A stretch of DNA of 64,000 nucleotides from Candidatus Marinacidobacterales bacterium (GTDB lineage: Bacteria > Acidobacteriota > Vicinamibacteria > Marinacidobacterales > SMYC01): the NCBI GenBank assembly GCA_965237955.1, contig OZ250169.1, positions 4,416,001-4,480,000 on the forward strand. Direction: 5' to 3'. Each line of letters begins with the position of its first letter. The stretch's first letter is position 1. A program made the position numbers and the translations under genes. The notes beneath the pieces are model-generated. The model was not told the origin of the DNA, searched no databases, and saw only the letters and a program-made list of their open reading frames with translations. This document shows positions 33,391-45,970 of the stretch, piece after piece.

Positions 33391-35118
33391 CTAGCCGGCT
33401 TTCTTGTTCTCTTCGGACTTTTCGGTCTTCTTGTGCTCGTCCTTTTCCTTGGGAGCATCCGGGATCGGAAAGTCCGGGTCGAGGGTGCGCACCTGATCGA
33501 AGACCCGCTCCGCGCGCTCGGTGAGCCCTTCCTTCTGGTACAGCTGAGCTAGTCCCCTGTATCAGAACAAATTAGATAAAGCAGAGCTTGCCGAAACCCT
33601 TCTAAGTGCATGAATCTTATGAATCTTATGGGCTGGCGAAAAGCCTAACTTTGTATAGTAATCAAAGATCCAGGGGACTAGGGACAAGAGATACCGCGGC
33701 TCCCACGGCTCGAGCTTGTGGGCAATCTTCAAATTCTGCTCCGCGTCCTGCCGCCATTTCGGGTTCTCCGAGAGCGCGCGTCCGAGGAAGTGATAGCGCG
33801 CGGGGTCGTTGTCCTCGTCGAGCTCCATCGCCTGGCGGCAGAGCTCGATCGCGCTCCAGAAATCTTCTTCTTTCATGGCGCGCTTCGCGCGCTTGAACAA
33901 CCGCCCGCCCTCCCCGGAGTCCGTTGGACGGATCCAATCCTTCCGCACCGAAGTTTCGGACGTGATGACCTCCCAACGCTGCTTCGATTCCTGGTATTGG
34001 CTCTCGTGGTCATCGAGCTTTTGATACGCGTTCGTAGAGGTCTGCGACGTTAGCGTAATGTAGGCCTCTTTCACGCGGGCGCGCCCGAACGAAAGCTTTT
34101 CTTGAAAATCCGAGTCCGGAATGTGCTCCCACTTCTCGGGATCGAACTTGTGGAAGCGCTCGCTGTACGCGGCTTCGATCTGCGCGTCCCCCGCGCCGCG
34201 CTCGAGCCCGAGGACCTGCCAGTGGTTGTGGCACTGGATGTCGTTATGGAGCTCGATGAGCTCCTTCTCGAACGGATCGGGGGCGGCGTCACGCGGTGTC
34301 GGCCGGGGACCGATTGGCGGATCCGCGCTGACCCTTCTTTCTTTGAGCTCTACGACGCCAGCCTGATGGAGCGCAATCAGGGTGCGGACCGCGTCTTCTT
34401 CGTCGAGCGGCGACGACTTCAAGATCTCTCCCACCGTGCTCTCGCTGTCGACGAGGTCTAACAGCGTGGCCTGTTCGGGCGTCAGCTCCATTCCGGAGGC
34501 GACCGCGAGCGCGCCGGCGGTCTGTTCGAGCACGTAGTCTTCGATGAGAACCTTGTCGCGATAAAGCCCCACATCGGGAAGGCGTTTGACCGCGTACAGG
34601 AACACGTCGCCGATGGATACCGGCGACAGCGTCACCGCCTCGACCTCCATTTGCTCCGAGAACACCAGCCGGTCCGACGGGCTCATGAGAATCGCACCAG
34701 CGATGTCGAGGATCTGGATGCGGACGAAGCGTTCGATCTCACCAGCTCCGAGGTAATCGAGCTCGACGAGGATCTGGCCGAGCTTGCGGCCCGAGCGGAT
34801 GAAGCTGATGGCGTGGTCGAGCTCGGTCGCGGTGATCTGCTGCTCGCGCACCATGACCTCACCGAGACGCTCTTCAGGAACGTTGGATCGGGCGCCGACG
34901 AGCTCGCCGCCTTCGAAGAAGACCAACCGCTTGGCGTCTCCCGCCTCGCTGATGAGCGCGCCGTTTTTGCCTGCCTCGAATGCGCTCCGCATCGCGCGCG
35001 CCGCTTTGGTGTCAAAGGTGTCGCTCAATCTGCAGATCTCCCCAACTTTGACAGAAGCAAGTTGCAGGCCAATATCGTGACGATCGCCGTCGCGCCATAA
35101 GTTCCCGCGGATCAACAC
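33391..35118 (-). pseudogene. DUF4388-like / J-like / TPR protein whose 3' end is interrupted by a MITE
   Basis: RLGEVMVR and KLGQILVE repeats, J-like NHWQVLGL...FDPEK, and TPRs. Removing 33553-33681 restores PRYLLSLAQLYQKEG...KKAG*. Confidence 0.78.
33553..33677. mobile_element. 125-bp AT-rich MITE with CTAG target duplication
   Basis: TIRs TCCCCTGTATC / GATCCAGGGGA (10/11 match); CTAG at 33549-33552 and 33678-33681. Confidence 0.88.
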
Positions 35119-35177: not shown

Positions 35178-35621
35178 CTAGCCAGTGGCAGTCCAGAGCG
35201 TGACCGACTCGGGGCTGATTTTGATCAGCGGTTTCTGGTCGATGCGGGCGTTTCTGTACTGTGGGTATCGGGAACGTAGCCTCGCGATGACCGTGGCGTG
35301 CTCCTTCGCGTAACGCCCACGGGGAGCGATGGTCTCGGCCACGCCGCGCACGAGCACGTAACCGAGCGCGGTCCAGTCGGCTTCGTAGTGGTCGATCACG
35401 AGTGACACCGAAGGGTTCACCTCGATGTTCCGAAGCCGCTTCAGCCGACCCCACGAGACGCTCTTACGCTTCTCGTCGATAGGCGTATAGAAATACCCGT
35501 CGACGAGCACGAAGCAAACCGGGACGACGCTCGGTCTCCCCTCCGCATCGGCCGTCGCCAGGCGCGCCACGAGGAGCTTCTTGATGAATGCCTCGACTTC
35601 GGGCTCGATAGCGACCGTCAT
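35178..35621 (-). CDS. PPOX-class putative F420-dependent oxidoreductase (TIGR03668-like)
   Basis: VARLATAD, VVPVCF, LKRLRNIEVNPSVSLVIDHYEADW and RYPQY. Confidence 0.85.
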   Translation of the reverse strand: MTVAIEPEVEAFIKKLLVARLATADAEGRPSVVPVCFVLVDGYFYTPIDEKRKSVSWGRLKRLRNIEVNPSVSLVIDHYEADWTALGYVLVRGVAETIAPRGRYAKEHATVIARLRSRYPQYRNARIDQKPLIKISPESVTLWTATG

Positions 35622-35726: not shown

Positions 35727-36119
35727 GTGAAACGCCTGATCGCCCTGTTGTTGTTGTTGTGCTCCTCTTGTGGAGGTGGGGGTGGCCTGCCCACAGGCGC
35801 GTCTCCCGTGATGGCGAGCGTCGAGTTCCACTACGAAGCCACATCGGACCAACGGGCCCAAAACTTCGGGTGCAACGGCGTCGCGCGGATCTACCCCAGT
35901 TGGTGGGGATTCACCCACGCGACCATGATCCTGACGGGTGAAGGACGCTGGGCGGCGCTCTTCGAGAACGTCCCCGTCGGCCGACAATCGGTCCGTATTA
36001 CCACTCCGTTCGGTTGCGACAACCCGAGTATCGTCGCGAACGACGTCGCACTGGCCGCTCGGAACGACAACCTCGTATTCGCCTTCACCGTCCACCCTGA
36101 CGGCAGTGTCGATCACTAA
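35727..36119 (+). CDS. Hypothetical lipoprotein
   Basis: Signal MKRLIALLLLLCSSC followed by a Gly linker and a beta-rich domain; overlaps the GT2 start. Confidence 0.65.
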   Translation: MKRLIALLLLLCSSCGGGGGLPTGASPVMASVEFHYEATSDQRAQNFGCNGVARIYPSWWGFTHATMILTGEGRWAALFENVPVGRQSVRITTPFGCDNPSIVANDVALAARNDNLVFAFTVHPDGSVDH

Positions 36120-36930
36120 AACGACCGTTTCGGTCGTCATCCCGACGTTCAACCGCGCGAGCGTCATCACGCGAGCGCTCGAATCCATCCTCCTCCAGAC
36201 ACGTCCGCCTGACGAAATCCTCGTAGTCGACGACGGCTCCACCGACGATACCGCCGAGCGGGTGCGCGCCGAGTTCCCCGGCGTTCGCTTGATCGAGCAA
36301 GAAAACCACGGCGTCAGTGCCGCACGAAACGCCGGAATCCGAGCGGCTACCGGAACCTGGATCGCCCTCCTAGATTCCGACGACGAATGGCTTGCCGAAA
36401 AACTCGACCGCCAATTGCGCGCGGTGGCCACCGACGACACCGTCCTTTGCCACACCGACGAAATCTGGATCCGGCGCGGCCGCCGCGTGAACCCGATGAA
36501 AAAGCATCGGAAGCACGGCGGGCACATCTTCGAGCACTGTCTTCCTTTGTGCGTCATTTCGCCTTCGTCGGCGCTGTTGCATCGGCGTCTTTTCGAAACC
36601 GTTGGTTGGTTCGATGAAGATTTGCCCGCGTGCGAGGACTACGACCTCTGGCTCCGCGTCACCGCACGCTTTCCCGTCCTCTTCATCGACGAGCCGTTGA
36701 TCGTCAAGCACGGCGGCCACGACGATCAGCTTTCTCGCCGCTACTGGGGTATGGATCGCTTCCGCATCACCGCGCTCGAAAAAATCCTCGCGGCGGAAAC
36801 GCTCAGCGAAGCGGATCGCGCCGCGGCGGAATCGATGTTGGCGCACAAGATCGCGATCTACGCGTCGGGCGCCAAAAAGCGCGGCAAGCTGGCGGAGGCA
36901 CAGGCGTATGAGAGTAGGCTCGAAACATGA
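36106..36930 (+). CDS. Glycosyltransferase family 2
   Basis: VSVVIPTFNR, VVDDGSTD, GVSAARNAG, LDSDDEW and CEDYDLWLR. Confidence 0.93.
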   Translation: MSITKTTVSVVIPTFNRASVITRALESILLQTRPPDEILVVDDGSTDDTAERVRAEFPGVRLIEQENHGVSAARNAGIRAATGTWIALLDSDDEWLAEKLDRQLRAVATDDTVLCHTDEIWIRRGRRVNPMKKHRKHGGHIFEHCLPLCVISPSSALLHRRLFETVGWFDEDLPACEDYDLWLRVTARFPVLFIDEPLIVKHGGHDDQLSRRYWGMDRFRITALEKILAAETLSEADRAAAESMLAHKIAIYASGAKKRGKLAEAQAYESRLET

Positions 36931-37742
36931 CTCGGTTCGTCGTTGCCCTTCGCGCGGAAGCGCGCCCTTTGATCGACCGCTACCAGCTCGAAGCACTCGA
37001 ACCTGGCGACGATGGCGCATTCCGTGCGTTTCACGGAAGCGGCCGTAGTCTCGTGATCTCGGGCGTCGGTAAAGTAGCGGCGGCCGCAGCGGTAACGTAT
37101 CTTCATGAAAAGCCCCTAGAAGTATGGTTGAACGTGGGTATCGCCGGTCACCGCGACCGCTCACCGGGTGAGCTCGTGCGGGCGCACCGCGTCACCGACA
37201 CCGGGACTGGTGAGCGCTTCTATCCAACGCTCCTCGGCCTTCCTCACATCCAGACCGAAGGCGTCACCACGGTCGACGTACCCGAGACCGAGTTCGCCTC
37301 GCGCGACGTCTTCGACATGGAGGCGTCGGGCTTTTACCAAACCGCGGTTCGCTTTTCGACATCCGAGCTCGTGCAGTGCGCGAAGATCGTGAGCGACAAC
37401 GTGGACACTGGCACCGACGCGCTCACGGTTGAGCGCGTCAGCAAGCTCGTGGAACGTAACCTCCACGCCATCGATGATGTCGTCGCCCATCTCGAAACAC
37501 TGGCCACAGAGCTCGAGCCTTTGCGGCCTTTGGGAGATGCGCCCGACGTCGAGCCTTTCTTCGAGACATGGCACTTCACCACATCGGAAAGGCGGCGGCT
37601 TTCTCGGCTTCTCGTTCGCCACCGTGCGCTCCAAAGTCTGCCGACGGCTGAGGAGTTCCGCCAACTGAAAGCGGCGTCGGCGGTCTTGCAAGAGCTCGAC
37701 CACCGCGTGCGAACCCTCGCTTCGGAGCAGCGGGAGTTTTGA
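36927..37742 (+). CDS. Nucleoside phosphorylase / MTA-SAH nucleosidase-fold protein
   Basis: VALRAEA, SGVGK, NVGIAG, FDMEASGF and KIVSD motifs of the PNP/UDP/MTAN fold, plus a helical tail. Confidence 0.78.
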   Translation: MTRFVVALRAEARPLIDRYQLEALEPGDDGAFRAFHGSGRSLVISGVGKVAAAAAVTYLHEKPLEVWLNVGIAGHRDRSPGELVRAHRVTDTGTGERFYPTLLGLPHIQTEGVTTVDVPETEFASRDVFDMEASGFYQTAVRFSTSELVQCAKIVSDNVDTGTDALTVERVSKLVERNLHAIDDVVAHLETLATELEPLRPLGDAPDVEPFFETWHFTTSERRRLSRLLVRHRALQSLPTAEEFRQLKAASAVLQELDHRVRTLASEQREF

Positions 37743-38464
37743 CGCCGCTCGAGCTAATAGGAGCCGCTACGATCGTGATGCTCGGTGCGATCCTTCAAGG
37801 CTCGGTCGGGTTCGGCCTCGGCATGCTGGCGGCGCCACTCCTGGTGCTCATCGATCCCGGGTTCGTGCCCGCTCCGCTTCTGGCGGCCGCGTTGGCGCTG
37901 ACACTCCTCGTTGCGCAACGCGAGCGGCATGCCATCGACTTCAGGGGCATCGGATGGGTGCTCGTCGGCCGCCTCCCCGGCACGCTCTTGGGTGCCATGG
38001 TCATGGCGATCGCTCCTCAACAGGCGACGACCATTCTCGTCGGCGTGGTCGTGTTCGTCGCGGTTGGTCTCACCGGCTCAGGGATGAGCCTTCCGCGTAC
38101 CCCGCGCGTTCTCTTGGGCGCGGGGACGCTCTCGGGTTTCATGGGGACGACGACCTCGATTGGCGGGCCGCCGATCGCGGCCCTCTACCATGACGCGGCA
38201 GGAGCCAAGCTCCGCGGAACGATGTCCGCCATCTTCGTCGTCGGGCTCGTGATCACCCTGACGGCTCTCGCTATCGTCGGCCGCTTCGGCCGGCCGGAGC
38301 TCCACCTCGCAGCGTGCCTTCTCCCCGGCGCCATCGTGGGCTACGCGGCGTCCAGCCGTATCGCACCAATTCTCGACCGGGGCTACACGCGTGTCGCCGT
38401 GCTGAGTGTTTCGGCTCTCGCTGGTCTTTCGGTCATCGTGCAGGCGCTCGTGGCGAGCCAGTAA
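37739..38464 (+). CDS. TauE/SafE-family membrane exporter
   Basis: LQGSVGFGLGM and GTTTSIGGPP; about 8 TM helices. Confidence 0.88.
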   Translation: MTPLELIGAATIVMLGAILQGSVGFGLGMLAAPLLVLIDPGFVPAPLLAAALALTLLVAQRERHAIDFRGIGWVLVGRLPGTLLGAMVMAIAPQQATTILVGVVVFVAVGLTGSGMSLPRTPRVLLGAGTLSGFMGTTTSIGGPPIAALYHDAAGAKLRGTMSAIFVVGLVITLTALAIVGRFGRPELHLAACLLPGAIVGYAASSRIAPILDRGYTRVAVLSVSALAGLSVIVQALVASQ

Positions 38465-38468
38465 TCGA

Positions 38469-39458
38469 ATGATCGAGACAATCTACGTCGAAGACGCGGT
38501 GGCGTCCCATCCGCGGGTGCAATCGATACTCTCGAGGTTTTCGAAAGCAGCGGCAATTCCCGTCACTCGCTATGGCGAAGTGTTCAACCGCAATCATCAG
38601 AGCTTCCGACTTCAGAAACGAAAGCCCTCGTTGATCCTCGCGGAGAAGCAAGGCAACCGGGTGTTGCCGGCGCCCGAGGGCTACGGCATCGGGAGCGCGC
38701 AAAACTTCTACTTCTCTCACGTTCTCAACTGCCTCTACGATTGCCGCTATTGCTTCTTGCAAGGCATGTATCGTTCGGCGCACTACGTCGTATTCGTGAA
38801 CTACGAAGATTTTCAAGACGCGATCGTGTCCACCGCGATCGCGCGTCCCGACGAAGACGTTTATTTTTTCTCAGGCTATGACGGCGACAGCCTCGCTCTC
38901 GATAGCATCACCGGGTTCGTCGACGCGTTCGTTCCGTTTTTTGCGGAACATCCTCGTACATACCTGGAGCTACGCACAAAATCCGCCGCCATTCGACCGC
39001 TCTTGTCACACGAGCCCGGTGCAAACGTCGTCGTTGCATTCAGCTTCACACCGGTCGCTTTCGGCAATGCGCTCGAGCACGGCGTGCCCAAATTGGAAGC
39101 TCGCGTCGGCGCCATGCGGCAGCTCGCCGAACGAGGCTATCGTCTCGGGCTACGCTTCGATCCGCTTCTGTACACCAAGCACTACCGGCAACACTATCGT
39201 GGGCTCTTCGAAGCGATCTTCTCCCAGCTCGACGTTCGAAGCCTCCACTCGGTGAGCTTCGGTCCGTTCCGGATGCCACGCGACTACTTTCAGCGCATGC
39301 AGAAGCTCTACCCGGAGGAAAAACTCTTTGCGGGCCTCGACGAAGAAACTCGCATGGTCTCGTATCCGGCGGAGCTCGAGAAGGCCATGCGAGAGTCATG
39401 CGAAGAGGAACTGAGGCGCTTCGTACCGTCCTCGATCCTGTTTCCGTGTCGCCCCTAG
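38469..39458 (+). CDS. Spore photoproduct lyase-like radical SAM protein
   Basis: NCLYDCRYCFLQGMY (CxxxCxxC), ELRTKS and GLRFDP, SPL-family pattern. Confidence 0.85.
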   Translation: MIETIYVEDAVASHPRVQSILSRFSKAAAIPVTRYGEVFNRNHQSFRLQKRKPSLILAEKQGNRVLPAPEGYGIGSAQNFYFSHVLNCLYDCRYCFLQGMYRSAHYVVFVNYEDFQDAIVSTAIARPDEDVYFFSGYDGDSLALDSITGFVDAFVPFFAEHPRTYLELRTKSAAIRPLLSHEPGANVVVAFSFTPVAFGNALEHGVPKLEARVGAMRQLAERGYRLGLRFDPLLYTKHYRQHYRGLFEAIFSQLDVRSLHSVSFGPFRMPRDYFQRMQKLYPEEKLFAGLDEETRMVSYPAELEKAMRESCEEELRRFVPSSILFPCRP

Positions 39459-39647: not shown

Positions 39648-39932
39648 ATGAGACACGCACAGAACCGGATCCCAATCGTCCTTCTGGCGTTTTTCGCGCT
39701 CGCGACACCCGTTATCACTCAGGCGGATCTGGTGTGCCCGCTCTGCGACGCCGAACCCGTGGTGACGCTCGGCGTCGCCGAGGTCGTCGAGCTCGTGCTG
39801 TCGACGGTGATGTACAAAGGCGTCGCCGTCCTTCTCCTCGGCGCGACTGCCGTCGTCAGCTTGCCGTGGGTCGTCGCCGGGGTGGCTGTCGCTCTTTTCT
39901 ATGTCCCTCGCTGGCTCAAGGCCTCGTCTTGA
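39648..39932 (+). CDS. Small exported/membrane protein with CxxC
   Basis: Signal-like N-terminus, CPLC and a hydrophobic C-terminal half; directly after the putative sigma-54 promoter. Confidence 0.6.
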   Translation: MRHAQNRIPIVLLAFFALATPVITQADLVCPLCDAEPVVTLGVAEVVELVLSTVMYKGVAVLLLGATAVVSLPWVVAGVAVALFYVPRWLKASS

Positions 39933-40202: not shown

Positions 40203-40420
40203 TTTTTTGGATCAGACGCACTCTCTCCAAGAAGATAGATCATGGGTTACACCGTTCCTTGCTCGCGAGGCCCGATTCGCGCAGGAGATCAAAAAAAGTC
40301 GCTTTATCGGCGTCGCGACCCGGGTGTCATCGGCCAGAGACGCCACCGAAGCGCTTGCCACGCTGAAAAAGGAATTTCCCGACGCCACCCACCACTGCTG
40401 GGCGTACGTTCTCGGAAACC

Positions 40421-41704
40421 GCTCTCCAAAATCTGATCAAATCTGATCAGGCCCAGGTTCCTGCTTCATCGAGGAGCGTTTCACTTCGGCGTATACCGAA
40501 GCCAGAGCGCTCCTCTCCACAGGCTTGAGGTCCGGTTGAGCTCACCGTACTAAAAAGATTCAGCGCTGCGTTCAAGTCTCGATCTCTTTCCGAACCACAC
40601 TCCTCGCATCGAAACTGGCGCTCTGTCAAAGTCAGATCTTTGTTGAGCACGCCGCACTCACAGCACGTTTTCGAAGACGCGAACCAACGGTCGCACACCT
40701 CGACGTGATTGCCGCGAAGCTCCGCCTTGTAGTGGAGCTGGCGGCGAAACTCGTGAAAGCCCATGTCCGCAATCGCTCGCGCCAGGCGCCGATTCGCCAG
40801 CATGCCCTTTACGTTCAGATCCTCAATCGCTATGCCCGCATAGTTTTTCGTCAAGTAGGTCGTGAGTTTATGCAGTGCGTCTTGGCGAACGCAGCGGATT
40901 CTGTAGTGTAGCCGCGCCAGAGCCACACGAGCCTTCTCGCGATTCTTGGTCCCTTTCTGTTTGCGCGACACGCGGCGAGACAAGCGCCTCAGCTTGGAAA
41001 GCTCTCGTCTCAGCGGCTTCGGTCCCGCGATCTGCTCCCCAGTAGACAACGTTGCCAGCCGCAGCACACCCACCGCTGCTTGGCTCTCGCAACGTTCCGG
41101 TGTCTCCTCGAGCTCTACCGATAGGCTCACAAACCACTTGTCCGCCGTTCGAGAAACGACCGCCGAGACCAGCTTGCCTCGAAACCGAAGCTCCTCCCGC
41201 ATCCGTACCCACCCGAGCTTCGGGATCCAAACGCGCTTGCCCGCGAGCTTCACGTGATCGTTGCCAACATAGAAACTGTCGTGCACCCCCTTCCTCTTGA
41301 ACCGTGGATAGCGTGCCCTCTTGGCGAAAAAGTTCCGGAACGCCGACTGGAGATGAAGAAACGGTTGCTGGGCTGCATACTTCGTGACTTCAAACACCCA
41401 AGGAAACTCCTCGCCCTTGATGGCGTTGAACTGTTTCTTGAGAGCCAATCCCGAGGGTTGACCGCCCGCTTCGTATTCTTGCCGCCAGCGCTCGAGAGCC
41501 CAATTCCACACGAAGCGAGCAACACCACAGGCGCACCGTAGGTAGACTTGTTGTTGCGGTGTAGGATCGAGATGTATCTTGTGGCTGAGTGTCGTTGGAC
41601 GTGTGCGGTGCAGCGCTTTCACGGGATGAGTATAAGTAAATGTTAGGAGTATGTCAAGAGATCAAATCTAATCAATCTGATATAAATAGATAGAAACATT
41701 AGCC
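40421..41704 (-). mobile_element. Non-autonomous IS607-family element (tnpB only)
   Basis: Inserted at a CC/GG core; direct ATCTGATCA-like repeats at both ends; no tnpA; TTGACA-17-TATACT promoter at 41657-41629. Confidence 0.82.
40447..41622 (-). CDS. tnpB: TnpB RNA-guided nuclease homolog lacking the RuvC-I Asp
   Basis: ARFVWNWAL, YPRFKRK, IEDLNV, SSKTCCECG, CEECG and DRDLNAALN; RuvC-I reads VGVLRLATL instead of VGVDLG. Confidence 0.92.
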   Translation of the reverse strand: MKALHRTRPTTLSHKIHLDPTPQQQVYLRCACGVARFVWNWALERWRQEYEAGGQPSGLALKKQFNAIKGEEFPWVFEVTKYAAQQPFLHLQSAFRNFFAKRARYPRFKRKGVHDSFYVGNDHVKLAGKRVWIPKLGWVRMREELRFRGKLVSAVVSRTADKWFVSLSVELEETPERCESQAAVGVLRLATLSTGEQIAGPKPLRRELSKLRRLSRRVSRKQKGTKNREKARVALARLHYRIRCVRQDALHKLTTYLTKNYAGIAIEDLNVKGMLANRRLARAIADMGFHEFRRQLHYKAELRGNHVEVCDRWFASSKTCCECGVLNKDLTLTERQFRCEECGSERDRDLNAALNLFSTVSSTGPQACGEERSGFGIRRSETLLDEAGTWA

Positions 41705-42160
41705 CCAAGACGAGCTGGCAGATGCGGATGGACGATGATGGCGAGCCTTCGGGAACGGCCGGCAAGCCCATCCTGAATGTGCTGCAGCACAAGAACGTCG
41801 GCGACATTTTGCTGGTCGTCGCGCGCTATTTCGGGGGCACGAAGCTCGGTGCCGGTGGTCTCGTGCGCGCGTACTCGTCGAGCGCGAGCGGGGTGATGGA
41901 ATGCCTCGAGGTCGTCACCAACACGCCGCTACGAGAGGCCCGGCTGAGACTCGACTATGCCGAGGAGCAACCTGTCCGAAGACTTCTGGAGGAGCTCGAG
42001 GTCACCGTAGGCTCGTCGACGTACGGCGAGCACGTGGAGCTTCTGATTCGTTTCGCCGAGGATCGTTCGCAGGTGCTCGAAGACGCTCTCGCCGAGCGCA
42101 CGAGTGGGCGCGTGAAACTCGTTGCGATATAGTTTCGGTCCGTAAGCAACAGGAGAACCC

Positions 42161-43331: not shown

Positions 43332-44718
43332 ATGAACTTCGTCGAGGCGCCGAGCGAGGCGTCCATACCGCTTCGCCCGCTACGGCGGGACGAGCTGACC
43401 ACGTGGCTTGCCGACCAGCCCGAAAGCGTAACCCGCTGGGTCGTATCGACCGGCTTCGAAGCCAAGCCGGGTACGACGTGTCTCGTGCCCGGAAACGACG
43501 GCGCCATCCGCGAGGTCCTCGCGGGCGTCGGCGAGACGTTATGGGATTGGGCGGGCCTTCCTATTGAGCTTCCCACGCACGCGTATCATGTCGTCGGCGA
43601 GCTTACCGACGGGCAAGCAAACCACGCCGCACTCGGGTGGGCGCTCGGAACGTATCGATTCGATCGCCTCAAACAAAGTGAAGACAAAAGCCACGCCGTG
43701 TTGGCATGGCCGGAGGGTTGCGACCGACAGAAGGTCGCCTCCGCCGCACGCGCGACGTTCCTCGTCCGGGATCTAATCAACGCACCCGCGTCGGACATGG
43801 GTCCGGCGGACCTCGCGGAATCGGGCAACAAAACGGCTGAAGCTCACGGCGCGACCGTTCGGCTCCTCGTCGGGGCCGAGCTCCTCGAGAAGGGTTTTCC
43901 CGCCGTTCATGCGGTCGGCCGTGCCGCCGCGCCTGAGCGCGCGCCTCGTCTCATCGACCTCACCTGGGGTGAGCCATCGCATCCGAAAGTCCACTCTCGT
44001 CGGTAAAGGCGTCTGTTTCGACAGCGGCGGGCTCGATCTCAAGTCGGCGGCGCACATGAAGCTGATGAAGAAGGACATGGGCGGTGGCGCACACGTCCTC
44101 GGTGTCGCGAGCATGATCATGGACGCCAAGTTGCCGGTACGCCTGCGGGTCATCATTCCCGCGGTCGAGAACAGCGTCTCCGGTTCAGCGCTTCGCCCGC
44201 TCGACGTCGTCCCCACGCGGAAAGGTACGACCATCGAGATCGGCAACACCGACGCCGAAGGCCGGGTGATCCTCGCCGACGCACTCACCGAAGCGTCGGG
44301 GGATGCGCCCGAGCTTCTCGTCGACTTCGCGACTCTAACCGGCGCTGCGCGCATCGCCTTGGGCGCCGAGCTTCCCGCGCTCTACTCGAGCGACGACGAA
44401 ACAGCAGCGGCACTTCTCGTCCACGGCGAGCGAGAATCCGATCCTCTGTGGCGGATGCCGTTGTACAAACCTTATCGGAAGCTCATCGACGGAAAAGTCG
44501 CCGACATCACCAACTCTGCAGACACTCCACTCGGCGGTTCGATCAATGCCGCACTGTTTCTTCAGGAGTTCGTCGAGCCCGACATCCCTTGGGTCCACAT
44601 CGACGTCATGGCCTGGAACACGAGCTCTCGTCCGGGACGCCCCGAGGGTGGAGAAGCGATGGGAATGCGCGCGGTCTACGCCCTGATTAGCGAGAAGTTT
44701 GGCGAGAAGTTTTCTTGA
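43332..44718 (+). pseudogene. M17 leucyl aminopeptidase with a single +1 frameshift (could be a sequencing error)
   Basis: RDLINAPASDMGP...WGEPSHPKV, extra C near 43992, then TLVGKGVCFDSGG, MKKDMGG, NTDAEGR and ATLTGA. Confidence 0.85.
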
Positions 44719-45970
44719 ACATCGACTTCAACCGCGACACCACGCCCGGCTCTTGAAGCTTTTGTCGCGCCCGCTCGTGATTGGGCTCGAGCGATAGAAC
44801 TTTCTCGAACGCGGCCCTCGCTTCCGGCTCGCGACCTTCCTGCTCGTAGACCTCTCCGAGCAGGTAGTACGTTTTGTCGTCGTATTCGTCGAGACTCGTG
44901 GCCTGTTCGAGGTGCTCGATGGCCGAGCTTCTCCACTTCGGGTTGCGCGCGTATGCTTGGCCCAGAAGCTGATGGTGCGACGCTTGGGTACCGTCGAGCC
45001 GGACCGCTTCCATCAATGCGCCTATAGCCTCGTGATACTTCCGTCGCGAAAAGAGTCGCCGACCTTCCTGGTAGCGCTGCTCCGCGGCCTCGCGTTTGTC
45101 TTCCGCCGACGTCTCCTTGTGGGACTCCGGAGCTCGAGCATCGGCGGGTTCCGTCTCGGCCACTCGTGGCGGCGGGACTGTCAGTAGCGGCGCCGGCGGC
45201 GTCTCAGGAATTGGTTTGTGTACTTCGAGGGGCTCGGGCTTCGCCTCAACGACGCCGATAGCCAAAAGCGCACAAATACTTCTGAGCGTCTCGACTTCGC
45301 CCAAGGGCGAGACCGACAGAATGTCCAGGATGTTGGTTCGCCCGTCCACGCGCGACAGCACGAAGCCTTCTGCTGCATTCACGTTGGCACTCTCGCTCGT
45401 CGACCCCGCATGCAGGTAGTCGGTCATGGCACCGACACCGATTTGAAGCGCAATGGGATCCTCCATCGATCGGATCCCGTCGACGATGATCTCGCGCATC
45501 GGGAGATCGAGAGTCAGATCCTGTTCCACCGGGTCTTCGGTCTCTTCGAAACGGTATTGTCCTCGATCGAGCGAGAACAAGAACGTGACGATCGACCGCA
45601 CTTGACGTTCGACGGCCGCGAGAAGCTCGTCTTCGCTCAGCGCCTCGAGATCGATGAGGCATTCACCGAAACGTTTGCCCGAGGATTCCTGTGCTTGACG
45701 CGCCTCTTTGAGCGTCGCCAAATCGACGAGACCTTCGGCACGGAGCAACTGGTCGAGCCGATCTCCGGTTCGATCGGAGCCCGCGAACACGACGGCCCCC
45801 CACTGGAAGCGAACCCGCCGCTCGGAGCCGCACGCGCGGATGTGGAGTGTCCCGGTTCGTCGCTCCTCGTGCAGCTTCCGGATGAGCGCAGGGAGAGTCC
45901 CCAGTCCAAGCTCGCCTTGAACGGCCTCTCGTTGATCCACGGGAACAGAATCCAAAGGGCACCTCTCCAC
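44687..45970 (-). CDS. DUF4388-like domain plus C-terminal TPR protein
   Basis: QGEL, RRTGTL, RLDQLL, RFGECL and TPRs with NPKWR; paralogous to 33391-35118. Confidence 0.72.
   Translation of the reverse strand: MERCPLDSVPVDQREAVQGELGLGTLPALIRKLHEERRTGTLHIRACGSERRVRFQWGAVVFAGSDRTGDRLDQLLRAEGLVDLATLKEARQAQESSGKRFGECLIDLEALSEDELLAAVERQVRSIVTFLFSLDRGQYRFEETEDPVEQDLTLDLPMREIIVDGIRSMEDPIALQIGVGAMTDYLHAGSTSESANVNAAEGFVLSRVDGRTNILDILSVSPLGEVETLRSICALLAIGVVEAKPEPLEVHKPIPETPPAPLLTVPPPRVAETEPADARAPESHKETSAEDKREAAEQRYQEGRRLFSRRKYHEAIGALMEAVRLDGTQASHHQLLGQAYARNPKWRSSAIEHLEQATSLDEYDDKTYYLLGEVYEQEGREPEARAAFEKVLSLEPNHERARQKLQEPGVVSRLKSMFKKTSRQTSR

Follow-up and report, generated by a model that had tools for sequence, protein, structure and literature searches.

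The question raised by this locus is what a radical S-adenosylmethionine (SAM) enzyme with the fold of spore photoproduct lyase (SPL) does in a member of a group (Vicinamibacteria, Acidobacteriota) in which endospore formation is not known. Its gene lies at 38469–39458 (+) in a 64,000-nt stretch of Candidatus Marinacidobacterales bacterium (positions 4,416,001 to 4,480,000 of contig OZ250169.1, assembly GCA_965237955.1), called the window below, and is the last of five genes at 35727–39458. A first-pass annotation had described these genes as overlapping or nearly abutting and had proposed that they encode adenosylation, adenine removal, glycosylation and export rather than DNA repair; all five are indeed on the plus strand, with successive overlaps of 14, 4 and 4 nt and a final gap of 4 nt between the TauE-type gene and the radical SAM gene. 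The answer developed here is that three of the five belong to a conserved unit that probably constitutes a small-molecule pathway, of which the window carries a derived variant.

The 329-residue enzyme matches PF20903 above its cut-off (6e-19), and its translation contains CLYDCRYCF, with the CRYCF noticed earlier, and FFSGYDGD. The AlphaFold model (pLDDT 91.9) aligns in Foldseek with G. thermodenitrificans SPL (4FHC series) at TM scores of 0.82–0.83 over ~348 columns, that is along the whole chain, its N-terminal alpha/beta domain included, at 18% identity; SPL structures stand far above all other matches. Such a fold, together with the Pfam match and the database names given to relatives ('spore photoproduct lyase', 'DNA photolyase'), would be expected of a true SPL repairing spore photoproduct (SP) in desiccated or UV-exposed cells. 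The residues argue otherwise. They were mapped by sequence alignment to the PDB SPL chain and two Bacillus SplB proteins, with their roles in SPL taken from the available part of PMC3467042. The [4Fe-4S] cluster motif CxxxCxYC (C88/C92/C95) and the SAM-binding equivalents Y94 (=Y96 of SPL), D140 (=D143), K171 (=K174), S192 (=S195) and R268 (=R273) are retained, each being invariant in 100/100 aligned homologs. Of the thymine-binding residues of SPL, in contrast, R193 corresponds to Ala190, E268 to Gly265 or Ser263, and Y339 to P326 (±1); K309 is replaced by M296, and the DNA base-flipping hairpin R304/Y305 has been removed by a deletion of 7–10 residues. Tyr137 occupies the position of the H-donor Cys140/141 and Phe96 that of Tyr98/99, so that the by-eye impression that equivalents of Tyr99 and Cys141 are absent is borne out by alignment to solved SPL.

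The two losses differ in how far they extend through the family, which was sampled as 150 distant representatives, of ~2,800 in all, drawn from 50%-identity clusters. Cysteine is found at the C140 position in 0/148 of these, and the position is Tyr in 134/148 and in all 100 close homologs; loss of the donor cysteine thus holds generally, whereas loss of Tyr99 is not a family trait, position 96 being Tyr in 69 of 139 representatives. There is likewise no Cys at the Clostridium-type S76 position, and any Cys within residues 60–87 occurs in only 4/100 homologs; C311 and C327 do occur in the enzyme, the donor-cysteine comparison being one of sequence alignment and not of placement in three dimensions. 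D138 (126/148), E167 (140/140 rows) and R169 (140/141 rows) are also conserved and, with Y137, form a predicted new polar site. Position 229, in the barrel, is Cys in 71 of 134 representatives (P0243–P0392) and Arg in 43, as it is in the window enzyme; Cys229 marks a large branch that includes most fusions and Fusobacterium, and the chemistry may be different between the two branches. Curated models score far below cut-off (TIGR04070, 82.5 versus 400 bits; TIGR03886, 65.6 versus 437.6 bits), and in a FastTree phylogeny of 97 rows, every second distant non-fused representative being left out, the family is separate from six SplB/TIGR03886-like rows, which form their own branch (support 99).

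Compared with SplB (4FHC–4FHG, 4K9R, 4RH0; TIGR04070; PF20903), the enzyme therefore has the same fold, cluster motif and SAM-binding residues, but it has lost the lesion-binding residues, the donor cysteine and the hairpin, and its partners are a nucleosidase, a glycosyltransferase and a reductase instead of SplA. Tyr137 could in principle donate a hydrogen atom; even so, SP repair is very improbable given these losses, the separate branch and a set of partners that have no place in it. Judged from its sequence, the enzyme represents an SPL-fold family distinct from SplB and, as the first-pass annotation had supposed, is not an SplB-type repair enzyme. It is encoded by the sole PF20903 gene of the host genome (a single contig of 8.13 Mb, 98% complete), which contains at least 8 further radical SAM genes.

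Which of the neighboring genes belong with the enzyme can be judged from their co-occurrence. In the 80 best GTDB loci, partners being counted within the fetched flank, the nucleosidase is nearby in 29 and the family 2 glycosyltransferase (GT2) in 16. Nearby absence is mostly not absence from the genome for the nucleosidase: 50 genomes could be searched among the 51 loci lacking it and 46 of these have one copy elsewhere, while for the 64 loci lacking a nearby GT2, 50 genomes were searched and 31 contain an orthologue; none was found in a complete Methylomonas genome. Of 80 metagenome loci selected on the nucleosidase, 66 have room upstream, and in 58 of these GT2 lies upstream of that gene; among loci with room downstream the radical enzyme is found in 49/57 and a short-chain dehydrogenase/reductase (SDR) in 25/42. 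Selection on neighbors was avoided in two even genome samples. Among 201 genomes of the host's class, the enzyme occurs in 21, which span only two families, and the nucleosidase in 20, all inside those 21; in the single enzyme-only genome the gene stands at a contig start. Among 330 scored Gammaproteobacteria (the class of a Methylococcaceae genome; one further genome was unscored), the enzyme occurs in 53, the nucleosidase in 50, GT2 in 48 and SDR in 35, and the overlaps with the enzyme are 49, 47 and 35 versus 8.0, 7.7 and 5.6 expected if independent, with the reservations that kin are not independent and that only 6–8 candidates per genome were scored. Partners were thus found to accompany homologs of the enzyme, and no Cys141 equivalent was found by alignment, the two points on which the first-pass annotation had let its proposal depend.

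A chance run of unrelated genes could be invoked for the two remaining members of the block, whose linkage is confined to close kin, and for Methylococcales, where the module genes are split over separate loci. As an account of the whole it is negligible: any of the four genes occurs in 54/330 Gammaproteobacteria, of which 30 have all four and only 1 has a partner without the enzyme; GT2 predicts an SPL-like enzyme in 47 of 48 genomes; and nucleosidase and enzyme are fused in 25 of the 150 representatives, in P0241 and in Fusobacterium vincentii (where an SDR follows). Because of this co-occurrence and the repeated fusions, the clustering of the three core genes is not attributable to chance, and the conserved unit is GT2, nucleosidase and radical SAM enzyme, usually with SDR. 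In the host genome each of the three has one close copy.

The nucleosidase-like protein (36927–37742, +; 271 residues; PF01048 at 6e-5, below cut-off) is a core member. Its model (pLDDT 92.9) has only methylthioadenosine nucleosidase (MTAN)-type nucleosidases as top Foldseek matches, at TM scores to MTAN structures of only 0.45–0.59, and consists of a shortened catalytic domain (~1–200) followed by an extra three-helix domain (~205–268). The site contains E11, M131, E132, K153 and D157, and alignment pairs its motifs Glu, Met-Glu and Ser-Asp with those of MTAN, in which we take the equivalents of E11, E132 and D157 to be catalytic. The E/E/D triad is intact in 215/215 scorable rows (25/240 rows were not scorable), a count that is biased, the nucleosidase profile itself having retrieved most of the rows, some of them repeats. 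The best NCBIfam match is futalosine hydrolase TIGR03664 (4e-8; 33.2 versus a cut-off of 124.7 bits), and other curated scores are also below cut-off (TIGR01704, 12.3 versus 73.8; NF004079, 19.4 versus 169 bits; HpnG, 15 versus 187). Compared with MTAN/Pfs and with MqnB, which works with MqnE, the protein thus shares fold, motifs and best family match, but differs in its sub-cut-off scores, shortened domain, Lys for the MTAN Arg, C-terminal helices and tie to an SPL-fold enzyme. The shortening lies between beta-strands 83–91 and 109–115, presumably the MTAN loop that caps the 5'-substituent; in the model the opened 5' pocket, like the futalosine hydrolase match, fits a bulky 5'-adduct. Since the triad is kept although the host already encodes a 5'-methylthioadenosine (MTA) phosphorylase and a purine nucleoside phosphorylase (PNP), besides the further radical SAM genes noted above, a dedicated substrate fits better than a housekeeping role. 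The fusions suggest that the nucleosidase binds the radical SAM enzyme, perhaps through its C-terminal helices.

The GT2 (36106–36930, +; 274 residues with an inferred start codon; PF00535, 2e-35) is a soluble protein of a distinct orthologous group, its orthologues being 58–73% identical, with the DxD motif LDSDD, an EDYD motif and a basic insert, RVNPMKKH. The fourth, usual member, a classical SDR with YxxxK, lies directly downstream of the radical SAM gene in 64/80 GTDB loci and is absent from the window; the host genome contains no orthologue (best E 1e-32, versus 1e-70 or better for orthologues), and 15 of the 16 genomes without an adjacent SDR lack any at E<=1e-35. A possible co-variation of SDR loss with Gly139 of the enzyme, a position that is Cys in 72/80 loci and aligns with the SAM-binding S142 of SPL, was ruled out by loci L027, L163, L164 and L165, in which Gly and SDR occur together. 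A pterin link, raised by Chlorobium sepiapterin reductase among the SDR's top PDB matches (1e-34), was dropped on finding that generic SDRs score alike. Elsewhere two unrelated aldo-keto reductases (AKRs) fill the reductase slot; in L045 (5996–6973) and in L192–L194 an AKR stands in the usual SDR place, directly after the radical SAM gene. The host genome contains no orthologue of either (best 33% identity).

The same GT2 orthologue accompanies three SPL-like subtypes, none of which has Cys at the donor position: the short Tyr type of the window, a long GQSSD/GQASD type and a WELGD type with a ParB-like neighbor. The long subtype (L295–L301, L173) has an extra CPVxS..CC motif and a helical N-terminus of ~100 residues, and the nucleosidase lacks its helical domain in all 8 genomes of this subtype that were examined, namely G188 and seven Gammaproteobacteria. 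A putative transfer of the helical domain to that N-terminus has in its favor this distribution and a shared F-T-x-x-Q/E motif, but its profile score (19.2) is no better than that of the reversed control (19.1). In the third subtype (L302, L303, L307, L308; genomes G366 and G528) a ParB-like gene, the WELGD enzyme and an AKR are consecutive, with a nucleosidase–GT2 fusion elsewhere; the ParB assignment is weak (PF02195, E 0.014). In G188 the gene directly after GT2 joins the nucleosidase domain, in frame, with an intact D12-class N6-adenine DNA methyltransferase with DPPY (L172:4398–5792, −), 55 kb from the SPL-like gene, which is of the long subtype. This nucleosidase–Dam fusion was seen in 1/178 loci and is treated as a single event; the host's own Dam homolog is 1.3 Mb away. 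The four enzyme-positive Gammaproteobacteria without a nucleosidase match have either the nucleosidase–GT2 fusion (G366, G528) or a decayed gene: in G372 (L305:3396–4058) and G319 (L306:3963–4703) the gene between GT2 and enzyme lacks the nucleosidase motifs and keeps the C-terminal helical domain.

Several of these features could be read as a nucleic-acid system, in which the enzyme would modify or repair a base other than SP in DNA or RNA, GT2 would glycosylate the base, and the nucleosidase would clear by-products or salvage the modified nucleoside. The enzyme keeps the SPL architecture in full, with both its N-terminal domain and R268 (=R273, which binds phosphate/SAM); one subtype has the weakly matched ParB-like neighbor and one nucleosidase is fused to Dam; GT2 has its basic insert; and SplB-like genes are known from SOS operons (PMC3765255, in the part available). 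Against these stand the missing base-flipping hairpin and K309, the lack of any DNA-repair gene among the recognized or annotated recurring neighbor clusters, and the lack of an E. coli-type LexA box, the one box type covered, within 300 bp upstream in 80/80 loci. No relative was found in viral contigs, in a search for close relatives only, and the enzyme has a net charge close to zero (median −1, against +2 to +9 in 4 SplB-like proteins), a weak sign. Such a system is judged unlikely.

The reading that is favored, with a probability of roughly 0.4, is adenosylation of an acceptor, removal of adenine, optional reduction, and glycosylation, steps that, with their order, we infer from the gene set, co-occurrence, fusions, folds, residue losses and triad. 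The radical enzyme would add a 5'-deoxyadenosyl radical to a polar acceptor, and the predicted nucleosidase would then cut adenine off the adduct; in most relatives the aldehyde so exposed would be reduced by the NAD(P)H-dependent SDR (twice by an AKR) before GT2 glycosylates the freed ribose-derived chain. In the host, where the SDR has been lost, an unreduced product may be made or a generic reductase used. Adenosylation is preferred because the nucleosidase, in a host already able to clear MTA-type by-products, appears to be dedicated, is conserved in its catalytic residues and seems formed to take a bulky 5' group. Enzyme and nucleosidase are paired in 20/21 genomes of the host's class and in 49/53 Gammaproteobacteria, the remaining 4 being fused or decayed, and the reductase slot after the enzyme and the GT2 shared by three subtypes count on the same side; GT2 accompanies the enzyme in 47/53 of those Gammaproteobacteria, in keeping with the co-occurrence predicted at the outset.

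Precedent for this logic exists in the HpnH/HpnG/HpnI hopanoid route and in MqnE (PMC13459092, as far as its available text goes). The hopanoid route likewise combines a radical SAM enzyme, a protein of nucleosidase/phosphorylase fold and a GT2, but the present enzyme is not HpnH and the nucleosidase is below the HpnG cut-off. In the host genome squalene-hopene cyclase (TIGR01507) has 0 matches and the best score for HpnH (TIGR03470) is 66.6 versus a cut-off of 225; a hopanoid acceptor or product is thus ruled out in a host without shc and hpnH, and of the parallel drawn in the first-pass annotation the analogy of gene sets survives and the hopanoid route itself does not.

Other observations weigh against adenosylation. 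G319 and G372 (2/53) keep GT2, enzyme and helical domain with decayed nucleosidase motifs, which obligatory de-adenylation should not allow. SDR was not found in 18/53 Gammaproteobacteria (only 8 candidates being scored per genome) and GT2 not in 6/53, so that both steps would be optional, missing as they are from some enzyme-positive genomes. The kinship of the enzyme to HpnH, MqnE and ArsS goes no further than the superfamily (TM 0.39 for MqnE), the bias of the triad count noted above applies here, and the laterally open SPL fold is, according to PMC3467042, typical of enzymes that act on macromolecules.

The decayed nucleosidases with retained helical domains are better explained by radical tailoring, in which the enzyme would abstract H from a sugar or nucleoside (with dehydration, epimerization or cleavage), SDR or AKR would reduce the resulting carbonyl, GT2 would attach or extend a sugar, and the tethered nucleosidase would clear inhibitory 5'-deoxyadenosine (5'-dA), its helical domain serving as scaffold. 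AprD4 and AprD3 form a dehydratase–reductase pair of this general kind. The invariant polar residues E167, R169, D138 and Y137 could serve as acid/base groups, and the nucleosidase of G188 is fused to another SAM consumer, the Dam-type methyltransferase, although only one such fusion was seen in the loci examined. Inhibition of radical SAM enzymes by 5'-dA is described in the accessible part of PMC8102628, and AprD4 is given, with ArsS, as a precedent in that of PMC13598754. A clearing role fits less well with a host that already has MTA phosphorylase, with a triad intact in nearly all copies, and with an opened 5' pocket that would suit a substrate larger than 5'-dA; tailoring is regarded as possible but somewhat unlikely. 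Returning to adenosylation, a bolder form may be put forward tentatively, as rather less than an even bet: that the SPL fold has been turned into a nucleosidase-tethered adenosyl-radical transferase that would build a C-linked pentitol arm from SAM on an acceptor, which would then be glycosylated, in a widespread and mis-annotated pathway.

The two other genes of the block are not part of the core. The first (35727–36119, +) encodes a 130-residue protein with a signal peptide/lipobox-like start and no Pfam or NCBIfam match, whose atlas neighbors are only hypothetical proteins, the atlas having yielded Pfam-level names only; it is present in 6/80 GTDB and 5/80 metagenome loci, all close kin, as a lineage-specific passenger. 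The other (37739–38464, +) encodes a 241-residue TauE/SafE-family membrane protein (PF01925, 2e-21; 77.5 versus a cut-off of 32.6 bits), found in 7/80 GTDB and 5/80 metagenome loci, again in close kin only; core membership of both was ruled out on this ground. Within the host's family TauE is present in 13/15 loci (of the other two, one lacks it and one is truncated where its contig stops); the sister family has it in 0/5. One family member, G146, has GT2–nucleosidase–enzyme–SDR without TauE; G086 and G164 have both TauE and SDR; and the remaining loci, that of the window among them, have TauE but lack an adjacent SDR. The simplest account is that TauE was inserted late and SDR then lost, and the window copy is a derived variant, with reductase lost and TauE gained. 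The export step first assigned to TauE thus finds no support, G146 having the module without it; of the operon read as a pathway, GT2, nucleosidase and radical SAM enzyme remain, TauE and the lipoprotein drop out, and the typical SDR is the member lost here.

Around the block, no sigma-70 promoter or terminator was found above shuffle level, and in RNA-labeled runs 5–8% of words matched, as short divergent pieces. A TIGR03668 F420-dependent PPOX gene (35178–35621, −), divergent from the block, is linked in 8/80 loci, all of Acidobacteriota-type kin. Farther upstream, 33562–35118 (−) encodes a protein with DUF4388, DnaJ and TPR matches and a cyclic di-GMP-binding MshE-type motif, which the product of 44687–45970 (−) resembles by eye. 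After the operon, a 94-residue hydrophobic open reading frame (ORF) with CxxC (39648–39932, +) has no family match and is conserved downstream in close kin. An ORF at 40447–41622 (−), which we take from its translation to be a TnpB-like IS200/IS605 gene, seems to split what is presumably a YigZ-like gene (pieces 40207–40446 and 41722–42132).

An SPL-like gene outside spore formers has been met before. In Nautilia profundicola, GAmH_0507 lies beside an SDR gene, GAMH_0506, in a non-spore-former, a likeness drawn from the description in the available part of PMC2628731, where the spl-related gene is read as DNA repair. SplB-like enzymes are treated as DNA enzymes in the accessible parts of PMC3765255 and PMC8989533, and SPL is listed only as a subgroup in that of PMC9477430. 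No characterization of this gene set was found in the literature searched, most subscription journals being outside the search.

To our knowledge one reaction has been characterized for the SPL fold, and this module family offers a second. If the bolder form of adenosylation is true, it would mean a hopanoid-like side-chain strategy applied to bacterial metabolites of a new class or to a modified nucleic acid base. The module is found in 16% of the sampled Gammaproteobacteria, in methanotrophs, marine Acidobacteriota, Latescibacterota and Fusobacterium, and thousands of 'spore photoproduct lyase' or 'DNA photolyase' genes in non-spore-formers belong here and are counted as DNA-repair capacity, a label that the residue mapping and the gene partners argue to be wrong. 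The gene set is small and defined, culturable strains (Methylomonas, Methylobacter) carry it, and the variant in the window, with its reductase lost and TauE gained, helps to tell core from accessory steps.

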